Source of the DNA: a virus
DNA: 64,000 nucleotides
Strand: one strand, 5' to 3'
IMG/VR virus record: IMGVR_UViG_3300045988_183727
The notes under the pieces are model-generated. The model ran no database searches. It worked only from the letters and a program-made list of their open reading frames with translations, and was not told the origin of the DNA. The position numbers were made by a program, and so were the translations under genes. Shown piece after piece: positions 1 through 50,473 of the stretch. The stretch's first letter is position 1; the number at the start of each line of letters is the position of its first letter.

Positions 1-3000
1 GAACCTATCAAGGCAGCACACGATTATATCTGGGACATGATTAACCAGCAGGCACAGATTCCAAGTTTCGCTGTTGGCAGACCTACTCAGACATATAACG
101 ATTTCGAGTTGGTATGGGACGGCACTTCTTGGTCGTTGACAAGAACCGACACCAACAGAGTCCTGAGAAATTTTGACGACTTCGAGTTCAGCCTGCCCGG
201 TGTGAGCACCTTCCAGAGTGGAAACAATCTTACGATTACAGCCACGCCGGAAGCCGCTAAGAGTATGTTGAACGGCATTGTATCGTACCCCACCGAGGGC
301 AATGTGATTGACCCTGATAGCGTCAACGCTTACCTTCTCGTCGCGGGTGGCAGCAAGCAGGATTGCGTTGCTCTTAACGGCACCCCCGACCCTGTTACTG
401 CCTACGTCCGCGCCAAGGTCACAAAGACTACCGGCGATTTGAACATTGCCAAGACCTCCGAGGATGGCAAGGTAGGCGGCGTGAGTTTCACGGTCACGGG
501 CCCCAACGGTTACAGCAAGACTGTGACCACTGGTGCAAACGGTAAGATTGCCATTACCGATTTGCAGCCCGGTACTTATACCGTAACGGAGAATACACCC
601 GACAATTACATCCCGACGCAGCCCCAGTCCGTAAACATCGCAATCGGCGATTTTAAGACGGTGAACTTCAGCAACGTGCTGAAGAAGGGCGCCGTAAAGG
701 TGACTAAGACCTCAGAGGATGGTCAGATTGCTGGTCACACCTTCCGGCTGTCCGGCACTTCCGCAGCAGGTACGGCTGTCAATATGACGGCTGTTACGGA
801 TGCCAACGGCGTGGCTACCTTCAATAATGTTCCTGTGGGCAACAACTATAAGCTGGAGGAAATCAACACCGCAGCGAAGTATGTTGTTCCTGCGGTGCAG
901 GCTGGCGTGGTGGTTGAGTACAACACCAGCACCCCCGCTCAGTTTGAGAACAAGCTGGCTCGCGGCAATCTGAAAATCACGAAGACCTCCGAGGATGGCT
1001 TCGTGGCAGGCATGACCTTCCGGCTGACCGGTACGTCTATCTCCGGTGCAGCAGTCAATGAAACTGCTTCTACCGACGAGAACGGTGTCGTCATGTTCAG
1101 AGAAATCCTTATCGGTAATAACTATACCGTACAGGAAATCAACACCGCCGAGCGGTACGTTGTTCCCGCTGTCCAGAGCAATGTGACCGTCACGCTCAAC
1201 AACACCACCAGCTTGAACTTCCATAATAAGCTGGCTCGCGGCGCCGTTGAGGTTAAGAAGACCTCCGAGGACGGCAAGGTCGCTGGTATCACGTTCCGCC
1301 TGTCCGGTACTGCTATCAACGGCGAGACGGTGGATATGACCGCCGTGACCAATGACGCCGGAGTTGCCACCTTCAACAACGTTCTGATTGGCAATAACTA
1401 CAGCGTTGAGGAAGTGAACACGGCTGCCAAGTATATCGTTCCCGCTGTGACAAACGGCGTGAAGGTTACTCTGGATAACACCACCCCCGTGAATGTCTAC
1501 AACAAGCTCAAGCGCGGCGACCTGCGCGTTACCAAGACCTCTGAGGACGGCATGGTCGAGGGCATCACCTTCCGGCTGCATGGCACTGCCATCTCCGGCG
1601 ATGCTGTTGACCTGACTGCTACCACCAACGCTGACGGTATTGCCATCTTCAAGGATGTCCTGATTGGCGACAACTACACGCTGGAGGAAGTCGATACGGC
1701 GGTGAAGTATGTTATTCCTGCCGTGCAGACAGGTCTCGTTGTGGAGTTCCAGAAAGTTACCGACACCGCTGTGACTAACGTACTGAAGAAGTGGAAGGTC
1801 ACTGTGGAAAAGACGGACGCCGAGACTGGCAACATCCCTCGCGGCGATGGTGTCTTTGAGGGTGCTGTGTACGGTCTCTATAAGGGTGACGAACTGGTGA
1901 AGGAGTACGTTATCGGCAGTGATGGCAAGTTCACCACTGACGAGTACATCTGCGGCTATGATTACACCATCCGTGAAATCAAGGCGCCCACTGGCTATCA
2001 GATTGATGAGGGCGTGTATCGCGTTGGCGCCGAGCCGGAGAACTACCGTATCGAACACAACGTTGCTCCCCAGATTACCTCTGTCGAGGTCATCAATCGC
2101 GGCACATTCGCCATCACCAAGTTCATCTCCGACGGAACCTCCGGTCCCGCTAAGTTCGAGGGCGGTGCAGAGTTCAAGTATTGGCTGCAGTCCGCCGGCT
2201 CTTACGAGAACGCTAAGGATGACGAGCGCGGTATCCTGACGACCAACGACTTGGGTTACAGCGGCAAGTCTATCGAGCTGCCCTACGGCACCTATGTGGT
2301 GCATCAGACCAAGGCCGGCGATAAGGGTGCGGGGCTCGCGCCTGAGTTCACCGTTCTGGTTGGCGAGGTTGACCACGACCATCACGACTTGGCTGTCAAC
2401 AACGGACCTATTACCGCGTATCTGCGCGTTGTGAAGGTCGATGAGCTTGACGGCGAGGTCATTCCTTGGGGTGGTGCAAAGTTCCAGATTTACGACCCTG
2501 ACGGGAACAAGGTGTCCCAGAAGGTCACTTACCCCACGGTAACTTATATTGATACATTCGAGACAAATGATGAGGGTTATTTTGTGACCCCGCTGGTTCT
2601 GCCTTACGGCGAGAACTATCATCTGGTCGAAATCGTACCCCCGAAGGGTTATGAGCTGATGGATACCCCGATTACCTTCAGCGTTACGCCCGATACCATT
2701 TCTTTGGATGCCGAGACCGGTCTGGTGACTGTGAATATCATCGCCGAGGACGAGGCGGTGACTCCCAAGGTCAAGACTACTGCAACCGACAAGGAAGGCA
2801 ACAAGGAAATCGTTCCGGCCACCACCGTCACTATCGTCGATAAGGTGGAATGCACCGACGTTATCCCCAACAAGACCTATACGGTCGAGGGATATCTGGT
2901 GGTTAAGTCCACCGGCGAGCCTCTGCTGGACGCCGAGGGTAATCGCATTACCGCCTCTAAGACCTTCAAGGCTGAGGCCGACTTCACTGGCTTTGTGGAG

Positions 3001-4800
3001 CTGGAGTTCACCTTTGATGCGTCTCTGCTGGGTGGCGAGTCCATCGTTGTTTTCGAGGACCTGAAGCGCGGAAACCGTGTCGTTGCTACCCATGCTGACA
3101 TCAACGATGTTGACCAGACCGTTGTAATCCTGAACCCCAAGATTGGCACCACGGCCAAGAACGCTGTTGGCGGTAAGGAGTTCATGCCTCTGGCTGATGT
3201 GATTCTGGTGGATACCATCTCCTACGAGAATATGCCCGTGGGTAAGGAGTTCATCGCTATCGGTACGCTGATGGATAAGGCCACCGGCAAGCCTGTTACC
3301 GATGCCAACGGCGACCCCGTCACCTCTTACAAGGTGTTCACTCCCGAAGCTGCCACTGGTACGGTGGATGTGAAGTTCGTCTTTGACGCTTCTAAGCTGG
3401 CCGGCAAGTCTCTGGTGGTATTCGAGCGTGTGTATCTGGGTAACGAGATTGTTCCCGGCGACTCCAATAAACCCGTGTTTGTGAGTCACGAGGATATCAA
3501 CGATGAGGGGCAGACCGTCACCATCGGCGTTCCCGAAATCGGTACAAAGGCCGTGAACAACGCCACCAACGGCAAGACCCTCGACCCCGAATCCCGCGCT
3601 GAAATCAAGGATACCGTGTCCTATAAGGGCCTGATTGCTGGAGAGAAGTACACTGTCTCCGGTAAGCTGATGAACAAGGCCACCAACGAGCCCCTGAAGG
3701 ATAAGGACGGAAAGGAAATTACCTCCTCCGTTACCTTCACCGCTGAGGCGTCCGATGGCACCGTTGACGTGTTCTTCGTGCTCGATGCATCTCTGCTGCG
3801 TGGCCAGTCTATCGTTGTATTCGAGTCCCTGCAGTACAAGGACATTGAAATCGCAGTTCATGCCGACATCAACGATGTTGACCAGACTGTGACTGTCAAC
3901 AGCCCTGAAATCAAGACCACCGCTAAGAACGCTGCTGATGGCAAGAAGGAATTCTGGGCCTACAGCAAGGTCGAGCTGGTCGATACCGTGTCCTATAAGG
4001 GCCTGATTGCCGGCAATAAGTACACCGTAATCGGTAAGCTGATGGACAAGGCGACAGGTGAGCCTGTTCTGGGCCGCAACAACAAGGAAATCACCGCCAC
4101 TACCGAGTTCGAGGCCAAATCCTCTGACGGTACTGTGGATGTGAGTTTCGTGTTCGATGCATCCATTCTGGGCGGTAAGACGCTGGTCGTGTTCGAGACC
4201 CTGACCCGCAATGGCACTACGGTCGCAACTCACGCCGACATCAACGATGTTGACCAGACTGTGACCATCAAGCGCATCCCGACCTATTCCGGTCCGAGCA
4301 TTTCCACCACCGCTACCTTCGATGGCAAGGAGAAGAAGAACTCCGTTGCTGGTAAGAACGTAAAAATCGTGGACACCGTCAACTATACCGGCCTGACTGT
4401 GGGCAAGACCTACGTACTGGTTGGTACGCTGATGGATAAGGATTCCGGTGTTGCCCTCAAGGACAATAAGGGTAATCTGGTAACTGCTACTACGACCTTT
4501 ACGCCCAAGTCCTCCAACGGTGCTGTGAATGTTACGTTCAAGTTCGACGCATCCAAGCTGAAGGACCATGCGCTCGTGGTGTTCGAGACTCTGTATGAGG
4601 GTCGTGCTGAGGCGGGTAATGTCATTGCTACCCACAACGACCTGATGGACGGTGCTCAGACGGTGTATTTCCGCGACAGTGTCCAGACTGGCGATGAGGG
4701 CATCGGCCTGTGGGCCATGCTGGGTACGTTCAGTGCCATTGCTTGCTGCGGCACTGCGGTGTTCATGTTCCGCCGCAAGAAGGAGTATGGCGCCGAGTAA
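1..4800 (+). CDS. Giant cell-wall-anchored adhesin (5' end outside the window): SpaA/Cna-B-like Ig repeats, then VaFE / Thr-Gln ester-bond repeats, then a C-terminal SVQTG sorting signal
   Basis: Frame 1 is open from base 1. The track M at 37 has no signal peptide, so the N-terminus lies upstream. Repeats carry TKTSEDGxxAGxTFRLxGT...NYxxEExNTAxKYVxPAV, and later repeats end in SLVVFExL...ATHADINDVDQTV (HxDxxDxxQ). The tail is SVQTGDEG, a hydrophobic helix, then RRKKE. Confidence 0.9.
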   Translation, partial: EPIKAAHDYIWDMINQQAQIPSFAVGRPTQTYNDFELVWDGTSWSLTRTDTNRVLRNFDDFEFSLPGVSTFQSGNNLTITATPEAAKSMLNGIVSYPTEGNVIDPDSVNAYLLVAGGSKQDCVALNGTPDPVTAYVRAKVTKTTGDLNIAKTSEDGKVGGVSFTVTGPNGYSKTVTTGANGKIAITDLQPGTYTVTENTPDNYIPTQPQSVNIAIGDFKTVNFSNVLKKGAVKVTKTSEDGQIAGHTFRLSGTSAAGTAVNMTAVTDANGVATFNNVPVGNNYKLEEINTAAKYVVPAVQAGVVVEYNTSTPAQFENKLARGNLKITKTSEDGFVAGMTFRLTGTSISGAAVNETASTDENGVVMFREILIGNNYTVQEINTAERYVVPAVQSNVTVTLNNTTSLNFHNKLARGAVEVKKTSEDGKVAGITFRLSGTAINGETVDMTAVTNDAGVATFNNVLIGNNYSVEEVNTAAKYIVPAVTNGVKVTLDNTTPVNVYNKLKRGDLRVTKTSEDGMVEGITFRLHGTAISGDAVDLTATTNADGIAIFKDVLIGDNYTLEEVDTAVKYVIPAVQTGLVVEFQKVTDTAVTNVLKKWKVTVEKTDAETGNIPRGDGVFEGAVYGLYKGDELVKEYVIGSDGKFTTDEYICGYDYTIREIKAPTGYQIDEGVYRVGAEPENYRIEHNVAPQITSVEVINRGTFAITKFISDGTSGPAKFEGGAEFKYWLQSAGSYENAKDDERGILTTNDLGYSGKSIELPYGTYVVHQTKAGDKGAGLAPEFTVLVGEVDHDHHDLAVNNGPITAYLRVVKVDELDGEVIPWGGAKFQIYDPDGNKVSQKVTYPTVTYIDTFETNDEGYFVTPLVLPYGENYHLVEIVPPKGYELMDTPITFSVTPDTISLDAETGLVTVNIIAEDEAVTPKVKTTATDKEGNKEIVPATTVTIVDKVECTDVIPNKTYTVEGYLVVKSTGEPLLDAEGNRITASKTFKAEADFTGFVELEFTFDASLLGGESIVVFEDLKRGNRVVATHADINDVDQTVVILNPKIGTTAKNAVGGKEFMPLADVILVDTISYENMPVGKEFIAIGTLMDKATGKPVTDANGDPVTSYKVFTPEAATGTVDVKFVFDASKLAGKSLVVFERVYLGNEIVPGDSNKPVFVSHEDINDEGQTVTIGVPEIGTKAVNNATNGKTLDPESRAEIKDTVSYKGLIAGEKYTVSGKLMNKATNEPLKDKDGKEITSSVTFTAEASDGTVDVFFVLDASLLRGQSIVVFESLQYKDIEIAVHADINDVDQTVTVNSPEIKTTAKNAADGKKEFWAYSKVELVDTVSYKGLIAGNKYTVIGKLMDKATGEPVLGRNNKEITATTEFEAKSSDGTVDVSFVFDASILGGKTLVVFETLTRNGTTVATHADINDVDQTVTIKRIPTYSGPSISTTATFDGKEKKNSVAGKNVKIVDTVNYTGLTVGKTYVLVGTLMDKDSGVALKDNKGNLVTATTTFTPKSSNGAVNVTFKFDASKLKDHALVVFETLYEGRAEAGNVIATHNDLMDGAQTVYFRDSVQTGDEGIGLWAMLGTFSAIACCGTAVFMFRRKKEYGAE
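454..1732 (+). repeat. In-frame tandem Ig-like (Cna-B/SpaA-type) domain repeats within the adhesin gene
   Basis: About five ~93-aa units, each opening with (T/K)KTSEDG and containing TFRLxGT, GNNY and NTAxKY(V/I)VPAV. Borders are approximate. Confidence 0.7.
2659..4672 (+). repeat. In-frame tandem VaFE / ester-bond (Cpe0147-like) domain repeats within the adhesin gene
   Basis: About seven ~100-aa units, each with TTA(K/T)..., VDTVSYxGL, GxLMDKATGEP, VxFxFDAS, LVVFE and HxDINDxxQTV. Borders are approximate. Confidence 0.7.
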
Positions 4801-17259: not shown

Positions 17260-17288
17260 TTGACATTATTTTATATTCGTGTTATAGT
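17260..17288 (+). promoter_or_regulatory. Sigma-A-type promoter of the conserved family
   Basis: cTTGACATTATTTTATATTCGTGTTATAGT, about 40 nt upstream of the nuclease gene. Confidence 0.7.
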
Positions 17289-17330
17289 CGAATTACGATA
17301 GAAACATAAAAGACTCGAAAGGAAAGCGTT

Positions 17331-18122
17331 ATGGTAAAGAATAATAACAAGAAAAACAACGGCACGAATGCCTTGCGAGGGCTCCTCGCTTTCCTTGTTG
17401 CCCTTGCTGTGTTTCTCGGAGTAGAGCTCATTCCGCAGCTCACAGAGAACCTTGGCCCCGACAACCATCCGTCGTATACAGAAGCGTCTGACGTCTACGA
17501 GGAGAGTTATAAGAGCTGGTTTTCGTTAGATGACATTGTTCCGTTTGAAGGGGAGCCATATGTCGTTGTAAACGGTAATGTTCCTTTCTTTACAGAAGTT
17601 GATATGACCACAGAGCCGTTCGAATTGTTTTCCGAGTTGGATGACCTTGGACGCTGCGGGACTGCCTACGCAAATGTGTGCCAAGAGCTGATGCCTACGG
17701 AAGAACGAGGGTCTATCGGTTCCGTGAAGCCGTCAGGCTGGCACCTGAACAAATACGACTGCGTGGATGGCAAGTACCTCTACAATCGTTGTCATCTGCT
17801 GGGCTATCAGCTTACAGGCGAGAACGCCAATGTCAAGAACCTCATCACCGGAACTCGCTACCTCAATGTAACTGGTATGCTGCCGTTTGAGAACGAGATT
17901 GCTGATTATGTTCACGAGACAAACAACCACGTTCTGTATCGTGTGACTCCCGTTTTTGAAGGCGACAACCTTGTAGCGAACGGTGTCTTGATGGAAGCCC
18001 TTTCTGTGGAAGATGATACCATTGAGTTCTGTGTGTTTTGCTATAATGTGCAGCCCGGTGTCAAGATTGATTACGGCACCGGCCTCAACTGGGCGGACGC
18101 GGAATACTCCGCTGAAAACTAA
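17331..18122 (+). CDS. Membrane-anchored or secreted DNA/RNA non-specific endonuclease (EndA/NucA-like)
   Basis: N-terminal TM or signal segment. NRCHLLGYQLTGENANVKNLITGTRYLNV...MLPFENEIADYV matches the DNA-entry-nuclease family signature. Confidence 0.85.
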   Translation: MVKNNNKKNNGTNALRGLLAFLVALAVFLGVELIPQLTENLGPDNHPSYTEASDVYEESYKSWFSLDDIVPFEGEPYVVVNGNVPFFTEVDMTTEPFELFSELDDLGRCGTAYANVCQELMPTEERGSIGSVKPSGWHLNKYDCVDGKYLYNRCHLLGYQLTGENANVKNLITGTRYLNVTGMLPFENEIADYVHETNNHVLYRVTPVFEGDNLVANGVLMEALSVEDDTIEFCVFCYNVQPGVKIDYGTGLNWADAEYSAEN

Positions 18123-18149
18123 ATTAGAAAGAATAAAGGAGAAAGAACT

Positions 18150-19586
18150 ATGTTTGACCTGCTCTTTGGGAACAAGGCCGTTCTCGTCCCCGCAATTATC
18201 GTGATTGCGGTCCTCATCATCTGTATTTTGGGGTATATCAAGGCGCCGCCCGATATGGCGTATATCATCTCCGGTCTTCGCAAGAAGCCCAAAATCCTCA
18301 TTGGTCGTGCCGGCGTTCGCGTTCCGTTTCTGGAGCGCGTCGATAAGCTAATTGTCCGTCAGATTTCCGTGGACATCAAATCCGATGGCTACATTCCCAC
18401 ACTGGACTTCATCGGCGTTGATGTGGATGCCGTTGCCAAGGTCCGTGTCAGGACAGATGACGAGGGCATTAAGCTGGCTATGCGGAACTTCCTGAACATC
18501 ACTGATGCCCGTGGCTTTGAGCAGGCGATTTCGGACTCTCTGCAGGGAAACATGAGAGAGATTATCGGGACTATAACGCTCAAGGAAATCTGCAATGACC
18601 GTAAGAAATTCGGTGATGAAATCCAGTCAAAGGCGCAGGTTGACATGAATGCGTTGGGTATCGAGATTATCTCCTGTAATATCCAGCGCGTGACCGACGA
18701 GAAGGGCCTTATCAATGCTCTGGGTCAGGATAATATGAGTCAAATCCAGAAAAATGCTTCTATCGCCAAGGCCGAAGCGGAGCGCGATATCCAGATTGCT
18801 CAGGCGGAGGCGGCTCGTCAGGCGAACGAGGCTCAGGTCGCATCCGATACACAGATTTCTATTCGTAAGACCGAACTGGCCGTGAAGCAGGCCGAGCTGA
18901 AGGAAACCTCCGACATCAAGAAGGCTGCTGCCGATGCTGCCTATAAGATTGAGGAACAGAAGCAGCGCCGGAGCCTCGATATTGCATCTACCGATGCCGA
19001 CATTGCGAAGCGCGAGAAGGAAGCAGAACTGGCAGAGCGTGAAATCACGCTGCAGGAGCGTCGGTTGGATGCTGATATTCGCAAGAAGGCAGATGCCGAT
19101 AAGTACGCTGCCGAAAAGAAGGCCGAAGCAGAGCTGTACGCCCGCAAGCAGGAAGCCGAGGCCAAGCGCTTCGAGCAGGAGCAGATTGCCGAAGGTATCA
19201 AGGCCGTCGGTGCCGCAGAAGCCGAGGCTATCAAGGCCAAGGCTCTGGCCGAAGCGGAAGGTATCGACCGTAAGGCTGAGGCCATGAAAAAGTACGGTGA
19301 AGCCGCAGTGGTCGAGATGATTATGAACGCACTGCCCGAAATTGCCAAGAACGTGGCCGCGCCTCTCACTAATGTGGATTCCATCACCATGTACGGCGAG
19401 GGTAACAGTACGAAGCTGATTGAGGACATCGTTTCTTCTACCACTCAGGTTTCCAACGGTATGCTGAACGGTTTGGGTATCGACCTGCGGAGCCTGCTGG
19501 CCGGCTTTGTCGGAGGCAAGGTCGCAGTTCCCGCATCTGCTCCCAGTGTTGAGCCTACCGCCGTCACTGAGGGCGAAGCCGAGTAA
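18150..19586 (+). CDS. Flotillin (SPFH domain, FloT/YuaG-like)
   Basis: N-terminal hairpin helix, SPFH domain, and a long A/E/K-rich coiled coil (AEAERDIQIAQAEAARQANEAQ...). Confidence 0.9.
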   Translation: MFDLLFGNKAVLVPAIIVIAVLIICILGYIKAPPDMAYIISGLRKKPKILIGRAGVRVPFLERVDKLIVRQISVDIKSDGYIPTLDFIGVDVDAVAKVRVRTDDEGIKLAMRNFLNITDARGFEQAISDSLQGNMREIIGTITLKEICNDRKKFGDEIQSKAQVDMNALGIEIISCNIQRVTDEKGLINALGQDNMSQIQKNASIAKAEAERDIQIAQAEAARQANEAQVASDTQISIRKTELAVKQAELKETSDIKKAAADAAYKIEEQKQRRSLDIASTDADIAKREKEAELAEREITLQERRLDADIRKKADADKYAAEKKAEAELYARKQEAEAKRFEQEQIAEGIKAVGAAEAEAIKAKALAEAEGIDRKAEAMKKYGEAAVVEMIMNALPEIAKNVAAPLTNVDSITMYGEGNSTKLIEDIVSSTTQVSNGMLNGLGIDLRSLLAGFVGGKVAVPASAPSVEPTAVTEGEAE

Positions 19587-19629
19587 AAACAATTACCCCA
19601 CCGTAGGCACTCCCTGCGGCGGGGAATAC

Positions 19630-19717
19630 GGAGAGGTGGCCGAGTGGTTGAAGGCACCGGTCTTGAAAACCGGCGATGCGAAAGCATCCGTGGGTTTGAA
19701 TCCCACTCTCTCCGCCA
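19630..19717 (+). tRNA. tRNA-Ser (anticodon TGA), CCA encoded
   Basis: Acceptor GGAGAGG/TCTCTCC, D-arm GTGGCCGAGTGG, anticodon loop CTTGAAA, long variable arm, T-loop GGTTTGAATCC. Confidence 0.9.
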
Positions 19718-19728
19718 AAAAAAAACAA

Positions 19729-19859
19729 GTACGGACGGTATAACCGGAATTAACGCCTGTGGAGATGCATGGTCGTCGCGGAAGCAGGAATACTCTGTTG
19801 GCTGGCAATCACGTGAGAGGTGACGACCAGCACCTTGGGGGAACTGAATACCTGTGCTG
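19729..19859 (+). ncRNA. Omega-RNA-like scaffold, copy A (structured RNA family, 5 copies)
   Basis: GTACGGACGGTATAACCGGAATTAACGCCTGTGGAGATGCATGG...GCTGG-CAA-TCAC-GTGAGAG-GTGA-CGA-CCAGC...GGGGGAAC plus the linker TGAATACCTGTGCTGG. The central hairpin covaries among copies. Confidence 0.7.
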
Positions 19860-20053
19860 GGTATACACCACCCAGAAATAGCAGGGTACTATACCACAAG
19901 ATGCCGCACGTTGAATTTGAGTGGCGGTATACACCACCCAGAAAAAAACAGGGTACTATACCATCTCATTGCACACTGGCATATACCCGTTATCGTAAAG
20001 GATATGTCACGGTTAGGGGTATACACCACCCCGAAATAACAGGGTTGTATACC
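19860..20053 (+). repeat. Hairpin-repeat mini-array A (3 repeats; CRISPR-like layout)
   Basis: Repeats at 19860-19895, 19926-19962 and 20018-20053 (GGTATACACCACCCnGAAATAACAGGGTTGTATACC). The spacers are 30 and 55 nt, and the latter contains a degenerate repeat. Confidence 0.7.
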
Positions 20054-20098
20054 TCGGTATGACGATTATATCCGAAGGAAGCTCATTATCCAAGGAAA

Positions 20099-20117
20099 GT
20101 GTGCAATGATTGCACAC
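20099..20117. repeat. Perfect palindrome GTGTGCAATGATTGCACAC preceding scaffold B (the same palindrome is at 50304-50322)
   Basis: Identical 19-nt palindrome upstream of scaffolds B and C. Confidence 0.8.
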
Positions 20118-20125
20118 TTAAAGAC

Positions 20126-20250
20126 GTACGGATGGTACAGCCGGAATTTACGCCTGTGGAGACGAACTCCGTCGTAGAAGCAGGAACTTCCCATGGCTGA
20201 ACACCGCGTGAGAGGCGGTACAGCACCGAGGTGAGAGCACCTTGGGGAAC
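20126..20250 (+). ncRNA. Omega-RNA-like scaffold, copy B (divergent, no hairpin array)
   Basis: GTACGGATGGTACAGCCGGAATTTACGCCTGTGGAGACG...GCT-GAACA-CCGC-GTGAGAG-GCGG-TAC-AGC...TTGGGGAAC. It ends 30 nt before the ATG at 20281. Confidence 0.65.
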
Positions 20251-20280
20251 AGCTTGAGTATCAAAATCGGTGGAAGGGCG

Positions 20281-20691
20281 ATGATTGTTTGTATGGCTGA
20301 TTACTTCAAAGTCGTATATTCGCGGGAGCTCTCCTCAGAATATGAACCGCGTTACATTGTCATACAGCCCAAGACTGGTGCGGTATTGGATGATGCCCAA
20401 GGTTTCGGCTACACGAGCCGCGAGAAGGCGGCAAAGGCATACACCTACAAGAAGATGCCGCATCCCGAACAGCGGTCTCTGGCGGCCCGCAAACGCCGCG
20501 TTGAGAAGTGGTGTCTGGAACACCTTGATGTGGTAGATGGTTATGCTGACATCTGCTTACAGCATATGAAGGCATCGGGAGATGGACGTATCAGTATGAG
20601 TTCTGCTGTTGTCTCCCGTTATTTGAAGGACTGCGGATACGATAATCTGCCGTTCTCGGCACAGGACTTTATCCGCTACTGTAAAACTTGA
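20281..20691 (+). CDS. Hypothetical protein (136 aa)
   Basis: The ATG at 20281 follows ggtggaaggg. The track ORF starts at an upstream TTG inside the RNA scaffold. Confidence 0.65.
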   Translation: MIVCMADYFKVVYSRELSSEYEPRYIVIQPKTGAVLDDAQGFGYTSREKAAKAYTYKKMPHPEQRSLAARKRRVEKWCLEHLDVVDGYADICLQHMKASGDGRISMSSAVVSRYLKDCGYDNLPFSAQDFIRYCKT

Positions 20692-20713
20692 ATTTTGGGC
20701 GAGGTGAAAGGAC

Positions 20714-22903
20714 ATGAAGAACACCATATTGGGGACGGTGCGCTTTAATGACATCGAGGCATACAAGAATGAGTGGGCGGCGAGAAGCCGTGAATGGCGC
20801 TTTGAAAAAGCCCGACAGGAGGAAACCCACATTATCAGGGAGAATGACAGAGACGATGCAACGCTCTTTTCTGGACTCACAGACCTGTCCAGTCTCTCGC
20901 GAGATAATAGTGACACCAATGAGAGATGGTGGCGGAAACGCATTGAGGACTACCTCAAGAACCTTTCTGAGTTCATCGACTACTGTAAGACCTATGAGCA
21001 GCCTGCCAACGTATATAGCATTTATGAGGGCATTGGTATGGTCGTCGGCCTCGGCAGTCGTAGGTTCTTTCTCTACCAGCCGGACTCTCTGGTGGCGGAG
21101 TATGTGCCGGTCAAGGACTATTCCGCAATGTCCGTGGGCGAGATGCGAGCCCTCGCAACGCACGGCGCTTCATCGACGCTGCCGGCATCCGTGCCTGAGT
21201 CTCTATCGGTCTCTCAGGTGCGCGAAGGTCTGTCCGACCGTGAGGCGGAGCTGAACGCCCTCAAAGCCAATATCGAAGATACCAAGAACGGAACCAGTGA
21301 TGAACTCCGCGCCCTCAAGGAAGAGGTCGAGCGTGCCATGGCCGCCTTGGAGAAGAAAAAGGACAAACTGATGGCAGAGCTGTCCGCCAAACGCGAGGCT
21401 CTGGAGGAACAGGTAGAAATGATGAACAATCAGATTTACCTGTTGGAATCTCAGATTTATGCTATCCGCTGCTACATGGGTGAGACAATCAACTTTACCC
21501 GTATCCGCACTGGCCGGAACGCACCGGAAAAGGAGCCGGTTGTCCTGTTCCAGAAGCTCCGTTTTCTCGATGAAGAGATGGGGCGTCTTGCTTCCATTTA
21601 CAACATGAAAGAAAGCAAGCTGAAGTATTTCGAGGAGTTTCTCGCAGCGTCTCCTGTTGCGCTGGATACCTTTGCTCCCAGTGAGAAGTGCGTGGCACTG
21701 GTTCGTCTCAGCAAGACCGGCAAACATTTCTTTGGGCATGAGATGTGGAGCAATATGCTGGACAGCTATAATATCTACCACGGGAACACCATTGGTATCA
21801 TTATCCGAAACGGAGAAAATGTCTATATCGGTTGGACTGACCCGGAGGAAGTCCATGTGACAGATGACTTCATTATGGAAGTAAATCCCAAGGATTTCCG
21901 CGTCAATACGGAGTATATCGGGCAGGAGGATGAATACCAGCGGAAGCAGCGTGTCAAAGAGGAGCGTTCACAGGCGCGAAGTATGGTCGTGGAAATGGTT
22001 TCCAGAATTTTCCTGTTCAATATCCTGCAGGGTGTGGTGGATAGCTCCAACATCCTTTCTCTGCCGGATGGTGTCAAAATCTCCAAGTCCTCCGAATATG
22101 TCGTGTTTTCCATGGCTGACCGCTGGTTGACCGACAACCGTTATGGCAGCTTTGTAGACATCGTGAAGCGATGCAATAAGCCTGATGCAAAGAAAGGTGA
22201 TAGTATCTTGACCGTCCTTTCTTTGACTCCGGGGAGAGAATACAGGTATAGGCCTTACTGGAATGACCGTGGCAGGGGAGACCGCAACCGTACCCATGAC
22301 TGTTCCGTTGATGACTGCGCCATCTATCCCATCAATCTGGTGGAGTATGACGCACCGGAGCAGCGCACCTATTATCTCTTTAATGGCATTCGCTACTCCA
22401 CATATGGCGATGGCAGTAATCTCGGCGATGACGCTGAAATCATCGAAACCGTTATGGAGACTAAGCCGCATTTCTTCGTATCTGTGGAGAAAGGCGAGTC
22501 CATAAACCGCCGTTGGTATGCTGACGAGGGCAAGAAATGCGCCCGTTCCAACTTCGAGGTGTTCCGCGACGAATATATCAACCTCGCTTTTATGAACTCC
22601 GAGTGGCTGACTTACGCCATCAATACCAAGAACCTCGGTGGATGGATTATCGGCGGTAAGTGCGTGGATTACGCCTACGGTATCAAGTACCTGAATGTGG
22701 CACTGCAGCACATCCGCCAGCGCGAGGCATCCGAGAAAGAGCACCTTGACCGCTCTTGCCCCGGCTTTACGGAGAAGTACCCTTCTTGGATGGTAGACCT
22801 GTCAGAATGGAAGCTCGCCGAAGATGTCCATAGCCTCCATTCCCGCAATGTATCGAGATTCTTAAAATGGTTTGCTGAGAAAGCGGAAAGAGGTGAGGTG
22901 TAA
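20714..22903 (+). CDS. Hypothetical large protein with a central coiled coil (729 aa)
   Basis: RBS gaggtgaaagg. Coiled-coil segment around EAELNALKANIEDTK...LLESQIYAIRCY. No family recognised. Confidence 0.75.
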   Translation: MKNTILGTVRFNDIEAYKNEWAARSREWRFEKARQEETHIIRENDRDDATLFSGLTDLSSLSRDNSDTNERWWRKRIEDYLKNLSEFIDYCKTYEQPANVYSIYEGIGMVVGLGSRRFFLYQPDSLVAEYVPVKDYSAMSVGEMRALATHGASSTLPASVPESLSVSQVREGLSDREAELNALKANIEDTKNGTSDELRALKEEVERAMAALEKKKDKLMAELSAKREALEEQVEMMNNQIYLLESQIYAIRCYMGETINFTRIRTGRNAPEKEPVVLFQKLRFLDEEMGRLASIYNMKESKLKYFEEFLAASPVALDTFAPSEKCVALVRLSKTGKHFFGHEMWSNMLDSYNIYHGNTIGIIIRNGENVYIGWTDPEEVHVTDDFIMEVNPKDFRVNTEYIGQEDEYQRKQRVKEERSQARSMVVEMVSRIFLFNILQGVVDSSNILSLPDGVKISKSSEYVVFSMADRWLTDNRYGSFVDIVKRCNKPDAKKGDSILTVLSLTPGREYRYRPYWNDRGRGDRNRTHDCSVDDCAIYPINLVEYDAPEQRTYYLFNGIRYSTYGDGSNLGDDAEIIETVMETKPHFFVSVEKGESINRRWYADEGKKCARSNFEVFRDEYINLAFMNSEWLTYAINTKNLGGWIIGGKCVDYAYGIKYLNVALQHIRQREASEKEHLDRSCPGFTEKYPSWMVDLSEWKLAEDVHSLHSRNVSRFLKWFAEKAERGEV

Positions 22904-23113
22904 ATGTCTGCGGTAAAGAAGAACAGTTCCGGAATTCTCAAATACGTCGTGTTTTGCAGTGCCTGCGGGCAGACTGCTCCCTTAACTGACAAGGTTGATG
23001 TTGACGGCCATCTTATGTACGATTGGCACCGCCCTTGTCCGCGCTGTGGTAAGGAAGACTGGGCAACTCGCTTCATTGAACCTCTCGGAGCTGCAAAGAA
23101 AACGCAAACTTGA
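22904..23113 (+). CDS. Small zinc-ribbon protein (69 aa)
   Basis: The start overlaps the upstream stop (TAAATG). Contains CSACG...CPRCG. Confidence 0.6.
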   Translation: MSAVKKNSSGILKYVVFCSACGQTAPLTDKVDVDGHLMYDWHRPCPRCGKEDWATRFIEPLGAAKKTQT

Positions 23114-23211
23114 GTTTGCTTATCTCTTTGCTTATTCACCCAATCTCTTAGCTTTTTCCTTGAAATTTAGTTTGGTTTGTCGCAAGTTGGTTGCAACCTT
23201 GAAAAATAAGC

Positions 23212-23245
23212 AAAAAGCACCTCTCAAGAGAGAGGTGCTTTTGTG
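23212..23245. terminator. Bidirectional rho-independent terminator
   Basis: agcacctctc aaga gagaggtgct, flanked by an A-run and a T-run. Confidence 0.8.
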
Positions 23246-23246
23246 T

Positions 23247-24611
23247 TTAGAATTTGAGTTGCTCTTCAGTTATTTTTGCGATTTGCGGCAACTTGCGAGC
23301 TTCTTCGGTACGGAGCTGGAACATATCCAGCTCATAATTGCCGAGCCGAACGCGGTCAAGCCCATCAGCGTCTTTGAAAATATCAAAGAGTGCTTTGACG
23401 CGCAGCGCATCCTGCCTATCCCTCCAGTGTTCCGAGATGAAGTCGTAGCCTTCCTTATCGGGGCGGCAGTGATACTCCATCAGAAACAGAGTGATGGGGT
23501 CCGTATCAGGATATGCTTCCTGCAGCATCCTTGCGCTCTCGCCACCGTGGGTATTATCCTCGGAATCGCTACGCCTGCCTGTGTCGTGATACAGTGCAGC
23601 CTCAATCAGAATTTCCTTGTCTTCCAAGTCCAGACCCTTCATATATGCCAGCAGCATACACATGAATAGGACACGGCCAGCGTGAGCCTTTCCATGCAGT
23701 TTGCCTGCCATCTGGAATGGAACGGCGTCATAGTCAGCAGTCTTCTGATAGAGCCAGAAGTCGTCTATCGCACCGTCATCCGCTGCCTCGTTGAGCCAGT
23801 CGATACCATAGAAGGGGAAGTCTTCAACCTCCTTGATGTCATCGGGAGATACAATAACTTCAGCCTCCACGCCTTCGAAATACTCAATGACAGAGGCTTT
23901 TTCGACTGTAGCCCGATATACCTTTGCATGGTCAGACGGAAAGCGCGTGGCGAAGAACACGGCTACGGCAGGGTCCAGCGTCCAAGAGAACGCTTCCTCC
24001 AGACTTGCGCTTTCATCGCCGGTGCCACGGTAAACCGTCAGTGTGTCAGGATACTTCCTGAGCCCCTTCTCCGTTGCCTGAACCTGTTCCGGCGTTTTCA
24101 TGCTTTTGAGCTTCAGTATACCATCCCGTCCGAGTGCGGAGCATCCGTAATCGGAAAAGGGGTAGACATTGTAGAACAGTTTGTAAGCACCATCAAAGCC
24201 CTCATCAACGAGTTTCTTCAGATACTCTATCCGCATCCGGTCGTTGAGTGCCGTGATGATGAAGTTACAGTTGCCGGAGGCAATTTTCTCCTTCAGTTGC
24301 TCAACAGCCCCTCGGATTTCAGGCGTTTTATCTTCACCGTCGGCTGCCATTGTAAGACTGTTGCAGGGGAATATGACCTTATCCTTATCCCAGTAATAAA
24401 ACGGGGTAAAGCCGCAGCCGTAGTAGAGGTTCTCAATGATGTCGTCGGTTAGATGAAACTTCTTCCGCAGTTCATCGGCTGTATAGGGCGCCATATATCC
24501 GTTCCGACTGGCAACTGCCTTTGATTTCTCTGATGTGACAGATGTAACAGGGAGGAGGTTGTTGAACGATTCAACATTGCGGGACTTCATCACCACATCA
24601 GTGATGTTCAT
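23247..24611 (-). CDS. Fusion protein: ADP-ribosyltransferase-like central domain plus a C-terminal HD phosphohydrolase domain
   Basis: An R-S-E-like triad is present: TVYRGT, FSWTLD, EAEVIV. The C-terminus has HGKAHAGRV...ALYHDTGR (HD motif). ATG at 24611; the track TTG at 24620 sits too close to the RBS. Confidence 0.6.
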   Translation of the reverse strand: MNITDVVMKSRNVESFNNLLPVTSVTSEKSKAVASRNGYMAPYTADELRKKFHLTDDIIENLYYGCGFTPFYYWDKDKVIFPCNSLTMAADGEDKTPEIRGAVEQLKEKIASGNCNFIITALNDRMRIEYLKKLVDEGFDGAYKLFYNVYPFSDYGCSALGRDGILKLKSMKTPEQVQATEKGLRKYPDTLTVYRGTGDESASLEEAFSWTLDPAVAVFFATRFPSDHAKVYRATVEKASVIEYFEGVEAEVIVSPDDIKEVEDFPFYGIDWLNEAADDGAIDDFWLYQKTADYDAVPFQMAGKLHGKAHAGRVLFMCMLLAYMKGLDLEDKEILIEAALYHDTGRRSDSEDNTHGGESARMLQEAYPDTDPITLFLMEYHCRPDKEGYDFISEHWRDRQDALRVKALFDIFKDADGLDRVRLGNYELDMFQLRTEEARKLPQIAKITEEQLKF

Positions 24612-24807
24612 ACTTCTCAATCTCCTTCAATAATTTTTCTATCACATCGGCAGCATCCGCTTCAATGTCGTTGATGTTACAGGCACCGTCCACATCACGG
24701 TACTTGCACCGCTTATCGCCGCAGCCAAGGTTGTCTTCAGCGTCCGTGCCGTAGCAGCGGAGCTTCTTGATAACTCTCAGCGCATCGCTTTTCAGCTTTG
24801 CAGTCAT
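24598..24807 (-). CDS. Small Cys-containing hypothetical protein (69 aa)
   Basis: RBS aaaggagaaaac. Overlaps the downstream start. Confidence 0.6.
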   Translation of the reverse strand: MTAKLKSDALRVIKKLRCYGTDAEDNLGCGDKRCKYRDVDGACNINDIEADAADVIEKLLKEIEKYEHH

Positions 24808-24895
24808 TATGTTTTCTCCTTTCTACGGGTTCTTTTTGCATATCATTATATATTCTTATATGCAGAAACTCAACTCCTTTCTGCAGCAAACAGAA

Positions 24896-25132
24896 TCAAA
24901 GGGTCTCATCGGCAATGACTTCCTTGGAAACCGTGTTATTCCACATCCGCACACTCTTCCTGATACTGCTGGCATAGATTTTTGTGCCGGCATAGGTCTT
25001 CAGGTTTGCGTGGAACGGAAACCCCTTTTTGCAACTCTGACATACAGCCTTACAATCGGGCTTGCCACAGTGGGAATACAGCTTGATTTTGCCACCACAC
25101 ACGGGGCAGGGAGCAATGTAACCTAAATCCAT
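24896..25132 (-). CDS. Lar-family-like restriction-alleviation zinc-ribbon protein
   Basis: CPVCGG...CQSC followed by SIRKSVRMWNN, resembling Lar CPFCGG...AWNRR. ATG at 25132 follows AAAGGAG; the track TTG start lies inside the RBS. Confidence 0.5.
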   Translation of the reverse strand: MDLGYIAPCPVCGGKIKLYSHCGKPDCKAVCQSCKKGFPFHANLKTYAGTKIYASSIRKSVRMWNNTVSKEVIADETL

Positions 25133-29788: not shown

Positions 29789-29855
29789 GATGTTTTCTCC
29801 TTTCTCCCAGCCTGTGATAAGGACTTACGGGAAACCAAAATAAAATGTATATATA

Positions 29856-29992
29856 GAAAAAGACAATCACTGCCCGAAAAGGGAAGTGATTGTCTGAATT
29901 TATGATGTGACTTGAAAAACGGAGATAAAACTCCTTATAAAAATATCTTCGTAATTATACTATTATACTACCACGTTTCGCTATTTTGTCAA
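29856..29992 (-). promoter_or_regulatory. Promoter-leader-terminator cassette 1
   Basis: Minus strand: TTGACA (29992-29987), 16 nt, TAGTAT (29970-29965), then TATAAT-like (29959-29954), GGAG-n6-CTCC GTTTTT, and the terminator AGACAATCACTTCCC/GGGCAGTGATTGTCT + T5 (29895-29856). Confidence 0.75.
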
Positions 29993-36197: not shown

Positions 36198-36235
36198 GCG
36201 TTTACTCCTTTCGTTTTTACTTGTTCTGAATATAT

Positions 36236-36368
36236 AAAAAGACAGTCGTTCCCAAATGAGAACAACTGTCTTGAATATGATGATGTGACTGAAAACGGAG
36301 ATAAATCTCCTTATAAAAATATCTTCGTAATTATACTACTATACTACCACAATTCTTTATAATGTCAA
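36236..36368 (-). promoter_or_regulatory. Promoter-leader-terminator cassette 2
   Basis: TTGACA (36368-36363), 16 nt, TAGTAT (36346-36341), TATAAT-like (36335-30), GGAGATTTATCTCC GTTTTC, and the terminator AAGACAGTTGTTCTC/GGGAACGACTGTCTT + T5 (36272-36236). Confidence 0.75.
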
Positions 36369-40222: not shown

Positions 40223-40355
40223 AAAAAGACAGTCGTTCTCAAAAGAGAACAACTGTCTTGAATGTGATGATGTGACTGAAAACGGAGACAAAGCTCCTTA
40301 TAAAAATATCTTCGTAATTATACTACTATACTACCACATTTCCTTATAATGTCAA
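40223..40355 (-). promoter_or_regulatory. Promoter-leader-terminator cassette 3
   Basis: TTGACA (40355-40350), 16 nt, TAGTAT (40333-28), TATAAT-like, GGAGCTTTGTCTCC GTTTTC, and the terminator AAGACAGTTGTTCTC/GAGAACGACTGTCTT + T5 (40259-40223). The post-terminator 5'UTR is shared with cassette 1. Confidence 0.75.
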
Positions 40356-43217: not shown

Positions 43218-43262
43218 TGTGTTTTCTCCTTTCTTATTGTGTTGTAATGTAAAAAAATATAT

Positions 43263-43394
43263 AAAAAGACAGCTATCCCTGTCTTGGGATAACTGTCTTG
43301 AATACTTGGTGTGACTGGAAGCGGAGATAAGTCTCCTTATAAAAATATCTTCGTAATTATACTATTATACTACCACAATTATTTATAATGTCAA
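43263..43394 (-). promoter_or_regulatory. Promoter-leader-terminator cassette 4
   Basis: TTGACA (43394-43389), 16 nt, TAGTAT (43372-67), TATAAT-like, GGAGACTTATCTCC, and the terminator AAGACAGTTATCCC/GGGATAGCTGTCTT + T5 (43299-43263). Confidence 0.75.
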
Positions 43395-47989: not shown

Positions 47990-48300
47990 TAACAGCGTGG
48001 ACAGGGCAAGAAAGGCTCGTTCGAAGGGCTCGTGCCTAAAATGACAATATTCTTGCGATTGTAAGAATAAGCGCCTAAATTGCCCGTCCCGTTTTCTTCT
48101 TTCTTTAATTACACTCATAAGCACAATAAAGTCAGCTCCCTGAGGGAAGTGTGCGGGAGTTGCTTCGACTTTCGCGTTGTTCTCCATGCGGGGAGGTTCT
48201 GGCGGTTCGAGTCCGCACGACGCGCCTTCTGTTTTCGCTGCTTCTATCTTCACCTCCGTCTTTTTAACGAGCAGCGGACACAGAAACATCTCTCAATATG

Positions 48301-48379
48301 ATAGCGTAGCATAACTGGTAATGCCGTACCTCTCTCACAGGTAACGATATGTTGGTTCAACTCCAGCCGCTATTGCCAG
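48301..48379 (+). tRNA. Atypical tRNA-like gene, probable anticodon CTC (Glu), CCA encoded
   Basis: Acceptor GATAGCG/CGCTATT, D-arm GCAT-AACTGGTA-ATGC, anticodon stem TACCT/AGGTA with loop CTCTCAC, T-arm GTTGG-TTCAACT-CCAGC. There is one extra nt between the D and anticodon stems and a 7-nt variable loop. Confidence 0.5.
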
Positions 48380-48484
48380 CCGGCGTTCTACCCACCCCGC
48401 CGACATCAACTCTCTTCGGCGCTGGCGGCCTCCGTGCAGACGGGATTACACGTGATAAGCGGAGGCTGCCAGCACCACCAAAAT

Positions 48485-48560
48485 GCTGGTGTAGCTCAGT
48501 AGGCAGAGCGGCGCACTCGTAACGCGCAGGTCGTGGGTTCGACCCCCACCGTCAGCTCCA
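48485..48560 (+). tRNA. tRNA-Thr (anticodon CGT), CCA encoded
   Basis: GCTGGTG...TAGCTCAGTAGG...anticodon loop CTCGTAA...GGTTCGACCCC...CGTCAGC-T-CCA. Confidence 0.85.
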
Positions 48561-48652
48561 TTCCATACTCATTCTCCTTCAAGTGAAGCCCCCGTGTAAC
48601 AGGTCTTTTGAAAAGTGCTTTCAGCCTCGTTGTGCGGGGGCTTCACGACTAT

Positions 48653-48728
48653 GCTGATGTAGCTCAGTTGGCAGAGCGGCGGATTTGTAAACCGCAGGTC
48701 GGGGGTTCAAGGCCCTCCATCAGCTCCA
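48653..48728 (+). tRNA. tRNA-Thr (anticodon TGT), CCA encoded
   Basis: GCTGATG TAGCTCAGTTGG...anticodon loop TTTGTAA...GGTTCAAGGCC...CATCAGC-T-CCA. Confidence 0.85.
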
Positions 48729-48763
48729 TTAAAACCATGTGCTTTTGTGGTGTTTTTATATGC

Positions 48764-48840
48764 GCGGATGTCGTCTAATTTGGTGAGACACCAGCCTTCC
48801 AAGCTGGTCATTGCGGGTTCGAGTCCCGTCGTCCGCTCCA
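48764..48840 (+). tRNA. tRNA-Gly (anticodon TCC), CCA encoded
   Basis: GCGGATG...anticodon stem CCAGC/GCTGG with loop CTTCCAA...GGTTCGAGTCC...CGTCCGC-T-CCA. Confidence 0.85.
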
Positions 48841-50303: not shown

Positions 50304-50322
50304 GTGTGCAATGATTGCACAC
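50304..50322. repeat. Palindrome GTGTGCAATGATTGCACAC (second copy)
   Basis: Identical to 20099-20117. It lies between the tnpB-like stop and scaffold C. Confidence 0.8.
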
Positions 50323-50344: not shown

Positions 50345-50473
50345 GTACGGACGGTATAGCCGGAATTAACGCCTGTGGAGATGCATGGTCGTCGTGGAAG
50401 CAGGAATACTCTGTTGGCTGGTAGTCACGTGAGAGGTGGCACCAGCGCTTTGGGGAACTGAATACCTGTGCTG
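50345..50473 (+). ncRNA. Omega-RNA-like scaffold, copy C (cognate position 57 nt downstream of the TnpB-like gene)
   Basis: Same family as A, B, D and E. Central hairpin GCTGG-TAG-TCAC-GTGAGAG-GTGG-CA-CCAGC, ending GGGGAAC plus TGAATACCTGTGCTGG. Confidence 0.75.

Follow-up and report, generated by a model that had tools for sequence, protein, structure and literature searches.

The region 19630–20691 of the viral stretch IMGVR_UViG_3300045988_183727 (64,000 nucleotides (nt); hereafter the window, meaning this whole stretch) carries two RNA scaffolds, A and B, in tandem downstream of a transfer RNA (tRNA) gene. Scaffold A is followed by a small array resembling CRISPR arrays, and both scaffolds belong to a family that is homologous to the omegaRNA, the guide RNA of TnpB, and is predicted to serve a TnpB-like gene elsewhere in the window. 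The layout described in an initial annotation, with tRNA-Ser, an A-run, scaffold A, a 3-repeat array, a palindrome and scaffold B following one another, is borne out element by element. What that annotation called a hairpin array is also in place, but its elements are 36-nt direct repeats with spacers, in the CRISPR sense. The features of the region are as follows.

19630–19717, + strand: tRNA-Ser(TGA) (ARAGORN; Rfam tRNA, 58.6 bits)
19718–19728: A-run
19729–19844, + strand: core of scaffold A, ending in GGGGGAAC; with the conserved 3' end TGAATACC, the whole scaffold spans 19729–19852
19737–19742: GGTATA in scaffold A
19792–19799: anti-repeat-like CTCTGTTG in scaffold A
19845–19852: TGAATACC after GGGGAAC in scaffold A
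19860–19895, 19926–19962 and 20018–20053, + strand: three 36/37-nt repeats of array A (covariance-model matches)
19896–19925: spacer 1 of array A, 30 nt
19963–20017: spacer 2 of array A, 55 nt, atypical
20054–20073, + strand: possible short terminal guide after the last repeat of array A, by analogy with the terminal spacer T95 in the related locus L053
20097–20119, + strand: palindromic hairpin AAGTGTGCAATGATTGCACACTT, with a second copy at 50304–50322, upstream of scaffold C
20099–20117: palindrome GTGTGCAATGATTGCACAC, folding into a 10-bp stem
20126–20250, + strand: scaffold B, ending in GGGGAAC and directly followed by AGCTTGAGTATCAAAATCGGTGGAAGGGCG-ATG
20251–20292, + strand: 5' untranslated region (UTR) containing the conserved AAAATCGGTGGAAGGGCG
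20293 (probable start) to stop at 20691, + strand: downstream gene with no assigned function

Scaffold A lies 11 nt from the 3' end of tRNA-Ser. A promoter-like site is located at 17260–17288, and because no terminator-like site is observed from there to 20300, the scaffold A module is probably co-transcribed with the upstream operon and tRNA-Ser. The palindromic hairpin upstream of the scaffolds is conserved in relatives and may be an RNA processing or stability element. The downstream gene starts just past scaffold B, as annotated, but the ATG at 20293 (MADYFKVVYSRE, conserved in relatives) is a likelier start codon than the one proposed at 20281; no Pfam family is found in its product. A search of the window against Rfam returns tRNAs only, and the scaffold and hairpin match no known family. 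A megablast of 19000–23000 against INPHARED yields only a tRNA-like match.

The window holds five copies of the scaffold core, always on the + strand (starting at 19729, 20126, 50345, 51812 and 53259), against none expected from shuffles, and it holds 12 repeats in all. Beyond the tRNA-Ser region lie the following parts, with one scaffold directly after the TnpB-derived gene.

49230–50288, + strand: TnpB-derived effector gene, 352 amino acids (aa) (Pfam OrfB_IS605 and HTH_OrfB_IS605)
50345–50466, + strand: scaffold C, with a 2-repeat array (50474–50509, 50530–50563)
51812–51935, + strand: scaffold D, with a 4-repeat array (51943–51978, 52004–52039, 52070–52105, 52120–52155)
53259–53383, + strand: scaffold E, with a 3-repeat array (53391–53426, 53446–53481, 53498–53533)

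The assignment of these scaffolds as guide-RNA scaffolds of the TnpB-like gene, already implied in the initial annotation, gains support from two observations. The core GCCTGTGGAG...GAAGCAGGAAT...GTGAGAGG is common to the scaffolds and to the omegaRNA 3' of the closest full-length TnpB (P0005, in locus L003), and scaffold C begins 57 nt past the effector stop codon. The insertion sequence (IS) of a more distant TnpB, P0041, has an overall layout that parallels the scaffolds, and its right end is fixed at ...GGGGAGTGTCAA by three insertion contexts; an alignment of upstream flanks is uninformative as to its left end and target-adjacent motif (TAM).

The effector contains the HTH_OrfB_IS605 and OrfB_IS605 (RuvC) domains with E-values of 1.6e-17 and 3.1e-25, and it aligns with ISDra2 TnpB over residues 6–322 (E 1.9e-49). 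In an alignment with the full-length relatives P0005, P0006 and P0041 (43–54% identity), the RuvC-I motif reads GISLG in place of GLDVG, replacing the Asp with Ser, and the effector lacks a 28-aa segment that contains the CxxC...CxxC zinc finger. Glu of RuvC-II and Asp of RuvC-III are kept. Close relatives of the effector number three or four in 5.8 billion proteins, and all of them exhibit the same Asp-to-Ser and zinc-finger changes. The effector is predicted to be nuclease-inactive. Its gene context is the same in the window and in loci L001 and L002. No Y1 transposase family is found among the window open reading frames (ORFs), and the effector locus lacks the traits of a transposon mobile unit, namely TnpA, transposon ends and occurrence in multiple contexts. 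In relatives that encode an effector ∼88% identical to this one (L018, L019, L020, L029, L043, L063 and L074), a short scaffold (...GAAACAGGAATTTTGGGGAC) lies in the 5'UTR of the effector gene and stops 35–40 nt before the effector ATG; the window sequence at that position is unrelated. PLSDB contains no relative of the effector and scaffold region.

Scanning IMG/VR with a 22-nt piece of the scaffold core retrieved 74 stretches from ∼30 contigs of 8–373 kb, mostly 40–190 kb. These stretches and other related loci hold 144 scaffold copies, ∼110 of which continue with GGGGAAC-TGAATA(TG)CC-TGTGyyG and then the hairpin. Four further classes are distinguished: the B type, the short scaffold in the effector 5'UTR, a class termed class-4, and chimeras between classes, which are a sign of frequent recombination among the scaffold classes. 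The class-4 scaffold belongs to a full-length TnpB IS and ends at ...GGTTGAATATCC beside a tRNA-like fragment. The initial annotation had considered the segment that follows GGGGAAC as a possible guide. In A-type scaffolds, this segment is instead a conserved TGAATA(TG)CC followed by a 7-nt linker, and it is the spacers 3' of each repeat that match foreign DNA with a 5' G (see below), which argues against the guide assignment. Since the class-4 scaffold terminates in TGAATATCC, the most plausible reading of TGAATA(TG)CC is that the standard scaffold genuinely ends there, at its 3' side.

The 5' arm of the hairpin has five matches in the window against none expected, and the hairpin motif occurs solely downstream of scaffolds. 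A covariance model built from the 12 window hairpins and run on 613 kb of sequence (the window and related loci) gives 394 repeat matches, which reduce to 81 unique arrays of 1–7 repeats after removal of duplicates. A scaffold precedes every one of the 73 arrays that are not cut by a locus edge. The array unit consists of a 36-nt repeat and a 30-nt spacer with a 66-nt period: 65 of the 114 distinct internal spacers are exactly 30 nt long, and 84 are 29–31 nt. The arrays in the window follow this pattern less strictly: their spacers range from 16 to 55 nt, and some of them have degenerate repeats. Spacers are common to related elements and differ by point mutations, indicating vertical descent. 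In array A, spacer 2 has a composite look. It is similar in its 5' portion to a family of 31-nt spacers (TACACTGGCATACGCCC...) from other arrays, and it contains 12 nt (TCATTGCACACT) complementary to an arm of the palindrome at 20099.

The repeats are complementary to the scaffold in two places. In an RNAalifold consensus of 41 scaffold and first-repeat sequences, the scaffold 5' GGTATA forms a helix with the repeat 3' TATACC, and the scaffold CTCTGTTG (CTCTGTT) forms a second helix with the nearly invariant repeat segment AACAGGG. These two helices are 99% and 96% paired across the 41 sequences, and all variants are wobble-compatible, compared with 33–53% pairing for slid controls over all five helices tested. 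Because no true compensatory changes occur, the pairing amounts to conserved complementarity and not to proof. In ISDra2, nucleotides -5 to -3 beside the guide pair with -105 to -103 in a pseudoknot common to all Cas12 guide RNAs, and stem 4 has its counterpart in the second of the repeat:anti-repeat duplexes of Cas12f (PMC10097598). The predicted scaffold–repeat geometry matches the ISDra2 pseudoknot. Moreover, the repeat 3' end (AGGGTTGTATACC) resembles the scaffold 3' end (GGGGAACTGAATACC), as expected if the arrays arose by duplication of the omegaRNA 3' segment. Such an origin has been proposed (PMC10691335), for TranC as well (cited in PMC13565253). An additional pairing, between the leader CCTGTGyyGGG and the loop of the first repeat, was considered and dropped, as the variants do not co-vary.

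Spacers from these arrays match foreign mobile DNA. Twenty-eight of the 169 unique spacers match two integrative elements of gut Clostridia (L091 and L093), against a mean of ∼0.8 and a maximum of 4 in 30 shuffles. A BLAST search of 87 concatenated spacers against INPHARED retrieved one human-fecal record, MT835962.1 (L090), which contains the same element as L091. In this record, a stretch of 230 bp contains the matches of three spacers from three arrays, at the promoter region, the start and the end of a small gene resembling an excisionase gene; the adjacent tyrosine integrase gene is matched by a fourth spacer (17/17 nt). The element is also present in a Clostridiales metagenome-assembled genome with a 100% identical integrase, and this integrase has no relatives in IMG/VR. 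The second target was retrieved by a metagenome scan with the core of spacer 1 of array A, which returned seven more arrays and one non-array contig, L093. The window spacer matches L093 4568–4593 at 26/26 nt, followed by 2 mismatches, and a variant of it in relatives matches at 30/30. Matches to L093 3571–6729 are seen for approximately 21 distinct spacers, which come from many arrays; this region comprises a leader, two genes of no assigned function, an FtsK/SpoIIIE-like gene and then an integrase gene.

The matched sites share a flanking base and an orientation. A G occupies position -1 in 21 of 23 protospacers (p ∼3e-11 versus an expectation of 0.25), and the repeat ends in C. The projected protospacers lie on the + strand in 21 of 23 cases, which is the sense strand where they fall within targeted genes or the targeted operon, with I115 as the single clear exception. 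A coding-strand bias of this kind fits roadblocks formed by dead Cas12, and a nuclease would not need it. Some protospacers are at a promoter or gene start (L090 2957–3030), and most are inside genes. Short spacers (17–24 nt) match the target over their entire length. The target is matched by the first 15 nt of T95, the terminal spacer after the last repeat in L053; the guide would thus lie 3' of the repeat, the arrangement also seen in TnpB and Cas12. Spacer position 1 is mismatched in ∼6 of 22 otherwise good matches to the L091 and L093 protospacers, which suggests that this position is not read.

The targets bear on a reading in which the hairpins are structural elements, such as palindromes of the repetitive extragenic palindromic or bacterial interspersed mosaic element (REP/BIME) kind, stabilizers or terminators, without any guide role, and the scaffolds are decaying copies of IS200/IS605 omegaRNA. 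The hairpins do fold and are degenerate in some window arrays, scaffolds recombine often enough to leave chimeras, and a full-length TnpB IS lies nearby in some relatives. Inert palindromes would not, however, be expected to show a spacer length fixed at 30 nt, 28 spacers matching two foreign elements against about one when shuffled, a flanking G or a strand bias, and no terminator-type T-runs follow the hairpins. We regard the structural reading as very improbable.

The reading that we favor, and consider probable, is that the window encodes a TnpB-derived, predicted nuclease-dead, multi-array CRISPR-like system that silences rival integrative elements, with scaffold B as a relic. Each module would consist of an omegaRNA-derived scaffold and a small CRISPR-like array, 19729–20053 (scaffold A with its three repeats) being one such module. 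The scaffold would act like a tracrRNA (trans-activating CRISPR RNA), and transcripts would yield scaffold RNA and repeat–spacer RNAs. Pairing of the scaffold GGTATA with the repeat TATACC would create the pseudoknot beside the guide, the scaffold CTCTGTT would pair with the repeat AACAGGG, and each repeat with its downstream spacer would form one guide RNA. The effector would load these guides and bind spacer-matching DNA with a G directly 5' of the match. Seated on the template strand and not cutting, it would block transcription of rival operons, namely the excisionase–integrase operon of one target and the operon of the other with its helix-turn-helix (HTH), FtsK-like and integrase genes. 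We infer RNA processing, effector–RNA pairing, the lack of cleavage and silencing only from the sequences.

The same matches could reflect true interference, in which the effector is still a nuclease, or a host Cas protein uses the repeats, and the targets are cut. Arrays on mobile elements that attack rivals are known from the phage ICP1, which targets the phage-inducible chromosomal island-like element (PLE), and Cas12j is found in huge phages. Two of the three RuvC catalytic residues, the RuvC-II Glu and the RuvC-III Asp, are intact. The coding-strand bias, however, is expected of a Cas12-like roadblock and not of a nuclease, and the invariable association of the arrays with a TnpB-type scaffold (73/73) disfavors a host Cas partner. 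In addition, the combined loss of the RuvC-I Asp and the zinc finger mirrors TldR, which was shown to bind without cutting (10.1101/2023.11.30.569447). Interference is judged unlikely, although it is the least improbable of the readings set against silencing.

Several observations weigh against silencing by a dead effector as formulated here. As a single catalytic residue is changed, residual or altered nuclease activity is possible, and TnpB proteins with rearranged catalytic sites can stay active (PMC10691335). The scaffold–repeat helices lack true compensatory changes, and the repeat has an alternative self-hairpin that is 89% paired. The putative TAM is a single base, which is unusually short for TnpB. 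Two target elements are found, and most spacers, including all window spacers other than spacer 1 of array A, have no known target. No cas1, cas2 or cas4 Pfam family that would account for the spacers is present among the 61 window ORFs; adaptation genes are likewise missing from many loci of types V-U, V-F and V-M (PMC10691335). The label of the carrier as a phage and the fate of scaffold B, which may still do something, are further weak points and are treated below.

Scaffold B differs from the array-bearing scaffolds. It belongs to a different scaffold lineage, with a GACGAACTCCGTC hairpin as in the UTR scaffolds and in an orphan scaffold of L090. Where the anti-repeat would lie, it has CTTCCCATGG, a sequence without a match to the repeat, and it contains a partial GTGAGAG duplication. 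It lacks repeats, TGAATACC and the 3' ATACC strand for the pseudoknot that guide RNAs of TnpB and Cas12 require. By eye, CTTCCCATGG can pair in cis with CCTTGGGGAA of the same scaffold (8/10 positions). The region upstream of the conserved start was compared in ten sequence variants; all ten, including one without B, keep the start and the UTR of the downstream gene. The states of B are as follows.

Full length: window, L059, L038, L039, L045
Truncated at the 5' end, with a fusion to array A spacer 2: L096, L097, L056
Chimeric: L062/L065
Absent: L044, with the leader ...TTGAGCATCAAAATCGGTGGAAGGGCGATGATT... kept

The initial annotation had raised the possibility that scaffold B carries a fixed guide identical to the translation-initiation region of the adjacent operon. 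Formulated as a rival, scaffold B would be a working omegaRNA whose guide, from 20251, directs the TnpB-like protein to the adjacent operon start for autoregulation. Scaffold B is indeed full length in the window, L059, L038 and L039/L045, with stems kept by wobble changes, and it retains ∼85–90% identity in several relatives; the cis stem resembles that of an unsplit omegaRNA; and a scaffold in a UTR recurs in relatives, in front of the effector gene. The identity of the guide with its flank, however, carries no information, because a flank-derived guide is identical to its own flank by construction in every TnpB omegaRNA. The leader exists without the scaffold in L044, so the supposed guide is the ancestral 5'UTR of the gene, and B is truncated or chimeric in five other variants. 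The pseudoknot 3' strand is missing, and the base 5' of the self-site is C and not the G seen at 21 of 23 targets. Within the window, the guide matches no further site when up to 3 mismatches are allowed, and in the target contigs the guide variants and the leader give only chance-level matches. A fixed-guide function is accordingly doubtful, somewhat more so than interference. Most probably, scaffold B is a dispensable remnant of an omegaRNA that was not split, and it now belongs to the 5'UTR of gene 20293–20691.

The position of the scaffolds directly after tRNA-Ser had also been taken as a possible integration junction. tRNA genes commonly serve as integration sites, and the cassette content after tRNA-Ser differs between relatives. 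A comparison with relatives does not support an attachment boundary: in L096 the same genes flank the region on both sides, with ORFs of 478 aa upstream and 729 aa downstream as in the window, and in L038 tRNA-Ser is kept before a cassette consisting of B directly after the tRNA, without the A module. Only the scaffold and array cassettes vary, with A missing in L038 and B missing in L044. L038 carries a duplicated 5' scaffold leader (AAAGTAAAAATAAGTACGC/AAAGTAAAAAATAAGTACGG), as expected from recombination between scaffold copies, and such recombination accounts for the cassette variation. The same A-rich leader also precedes scaffolds C, D and E, none of which is beside a tRNA, and in the window neither a repeat of the tRNA 3' end flanking the cassette nor an adjacent integrase is found. 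We consider an integration boundary highly improbable; on these comparisons, the tRNA-Ser locus is a recombination-prone cassette site internal to the element and not an attachment (att) junction.

The carrier is probably a large mobile element from Clostridia of the gut; relatives of the element are classed as viral in IMG/VR and measure ∼40–190 kb. Proteins encoded in the window include a 1587-aa TQ/SpaA adhesin (37–4797) and an SPFH/flotillin protein, along with RecG, MazF, a topoisomerase and a large serine recombinase. Among 44 large ORFs from related loci, ParB, primase and methyltransferases are found in addition. A PHROGs search finds no capsid, terminase, portal or tail genes among the window ORFs or the 44 large relative ORFs. 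The viral label may be wrong, and the carrier may be a plasmid, phage-plasmid or conjugative element. A search of 17300–25000 against PLSDB returned no relative beyond a common endonuclease gene, and INPHARED likewise contains no close relative of the carrier.

The L093 target has a further connection to the carrier. A tblastx comparison of L093 with the related loci finds nothing in common except a ∼120-nt stretch (3528–3645). This stretch has 72–79% identity with a cassette of which the window contains four copies and which is composed of a promoter (TTGACA-17-TAGTATAAT), a ∼100-nt leader and a terminator hairpin. The cassette copies are the following.

29852–29973, - strand: cassette copy
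36231–36349, - strand: cassette copy
40272–40342, - strand: cassette copy
43253–43375, - strand: cassette copy
L093 3505–3650: cassette copy of the target element

The L093 copy would drive the targeted operon, and the first protospacer is in its leader, where L093 differs from the window copies. The repeated cassette may be an antitermination-controlled promoter that the target element has copied. We infer from the sequence that the L093 target is a small integrative, possibly mobilizable or satellite-like element that copies a regulatory signal of the carrier.

Among described systems, TldR (Wiegand et al., 10.1101/2023.11.30.569447) shares with the present effector its descent as a TnpB homologue, a change in RuvC, here predicted to be inactivating, and the loss of part of the C-terminal region. 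Both lack transposon ends, are borne by mobile elements, have an omegaRNA-like scaffold beside the gene and are predicted to repress by DNA binding. In the described TldRs, the guide is fixed, essentially single and aimed at a promoter of the host (fliC, oppA; 10.1101/2023.11.30.569447), whereas at least five scaffolds per 64 kb and up to seven guides per scaffold, in arrays, are observed here, and the targets are in other mobile elements, mostly inside operons. The effector has one changed catalytic residue and would have failed the filter of two or more mutations used in the TldR study.

TranC and early type V systems (V-U groups, Cas12f), where the omegaRNA is split into tracrRNA and crRNA, likewise combine a small TnpB-like effector with an array downstream of an omegaRNA-derived scaffold (Altae-Tran et al., PMC10691335; Jin et al., Cell 2025, cited in PMC13565253). 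They also share a repeat 3' end like the scaffold 3' end and, as in the window, the absence of cas1/cas2; the two repeat:anti-repeat contacts predicted here resemble those of Cas12f. Unlike those systems, which have one tracrRNA and one array beside the gene, the scaffold here is duplicated with each array and scattered, and the motif is a single 5' G. The effector is shorter than the TranC PDB chains that it matches (352 versus 478–575 aa) and is predicted to be inactive.

Plasmid-borne type IV-A CRISPR systems likewise rely on RNA-guided binding without cutting and have array-only loci without adaptation genes. RNA-guided binding without cutting, with silencing by or against mobile elements, is also common to Cas12m and Cas12c, type V effectors free of DNase activity that silence transcription (cited in PMC13565253), and to the prediction made here. 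The effectors of all three differ from the present one in being unrelated or distantly related and much larger, and their loci have a single array and no omegaRNA-like scaffold copies. In the phage CRISPR systems (ICP1 against PLE; Cas12j/CasPhi, Cas-lambda and Cas12r; 10.64898/2026.04.20.719267), arrays on a mobile element match a rival of the same host, as here, and the cassette copy in L093 recalls the helper signals that satellites often copy. Those systems cut DNA, however, whereas the present effector is predicted to be dead and its carrier is a phage by IMG/VR label alone. Finally, scaffold B and the class-4 scaffold look like ordinary unsplit IS200/IS605 TnpB omegaRNAs, in which the guide is the right-end flank, whereas scaffolds A–E lack TnpA, transposon ends and an intact nuclease, and A, C, D and E are followed by arrays.

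The family combines traits of TldR and of TranC/type V-U, and may already be included in PMC10691335 among its unnamed clades, whether V-U or inactivated. We tentatively propose, at slightly below even chances, an independent and very recent CRISPR-like birth from a TnpB omegaRNA, observed at an intermediate stage, in which a dead effector was joined by a scaffold and mini-array copied at a dozen places to silence, without cutting, small integrative elements that live off the carrier or compete with it, and scaffold B and the UTR scaffolds represent unsplit ancestors. The origin of CRISPR arrays and tracrRNAs from TnpB omegaRNA is an open question, and known intermediates (TranC, V-U groups) are few. 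A single genome here displays several stages, from unsplit-looking scaffolds to scaffold-plus-array modules and repeats that copy the scaffold 3' end, so that the route by duplication and splitting would become directly testable. If correct, silencing of rivals would widen the TldR principle, in which a host gene is addressed by a single fixed guide, to guides that are multiplexed, evolve and are directed at rival mobile elements, and would represent nuclease-free warfare between elements in the human gut. Use of the 352-aa binder, with its one-base motif and natural multiplex arrays, for compact CRISPR interference (CRISPRi) is conceivable only if binding is confirmed.

Matches of the spacers to the carriers themselves were also sought. 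With as many as 3 mismatches allowed, the window contains no other site that matches its spacers or the conserved leader, and no spacer matches the non-array DNA of the 613 kb of related loci, except one that is antisense to a diverged scaffold core; regulation of the carrier loci by their own spacers was therefore dropped. IMG/VR scans with the window spacers A1, D2 and C1 return arrays only, and the 20054–20073 segment has no match in such a scan. The exceptional spacer is found in L048 (∼392–421) and L077, where the 3' half of CTTCGTCAATGA(T/G)GGCATTTCCACAGGCGT is antisense to the diverged scaffold core (ACGCCTGTGGAaATG...). It looks as if this spacer were aimed at the guide-RNA gene of a rival system.

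Two further scaffold-like sequences lie outside the arrays. In L090, an orphan omegaRNA-like scaffold (GTACGG...GCCTGTGGAGACGGATTTCTGTCGTTGAAGCAGGAAG) with a terminator-like hairpin is located at 2790–2850, ∼110 nt upstream of the first protospacer, and the contig contains no TnpB gene; that the orphan scaffold is a decoy or hijacker of the effector is pure speculation. In the window, a tRNA-like 3' fragment (GGTTCGAGTCCGCACGACGCGCC) is observed at 48190–48225, ahead of a tRNA cluster (48300–48840). The full-length TnpB IS with the class-4 scaffold, whose protein is 51% identical to the dead effector, ends at exactly this fragment in L025, L042 and L068, and the window represents the empty site for this IS.

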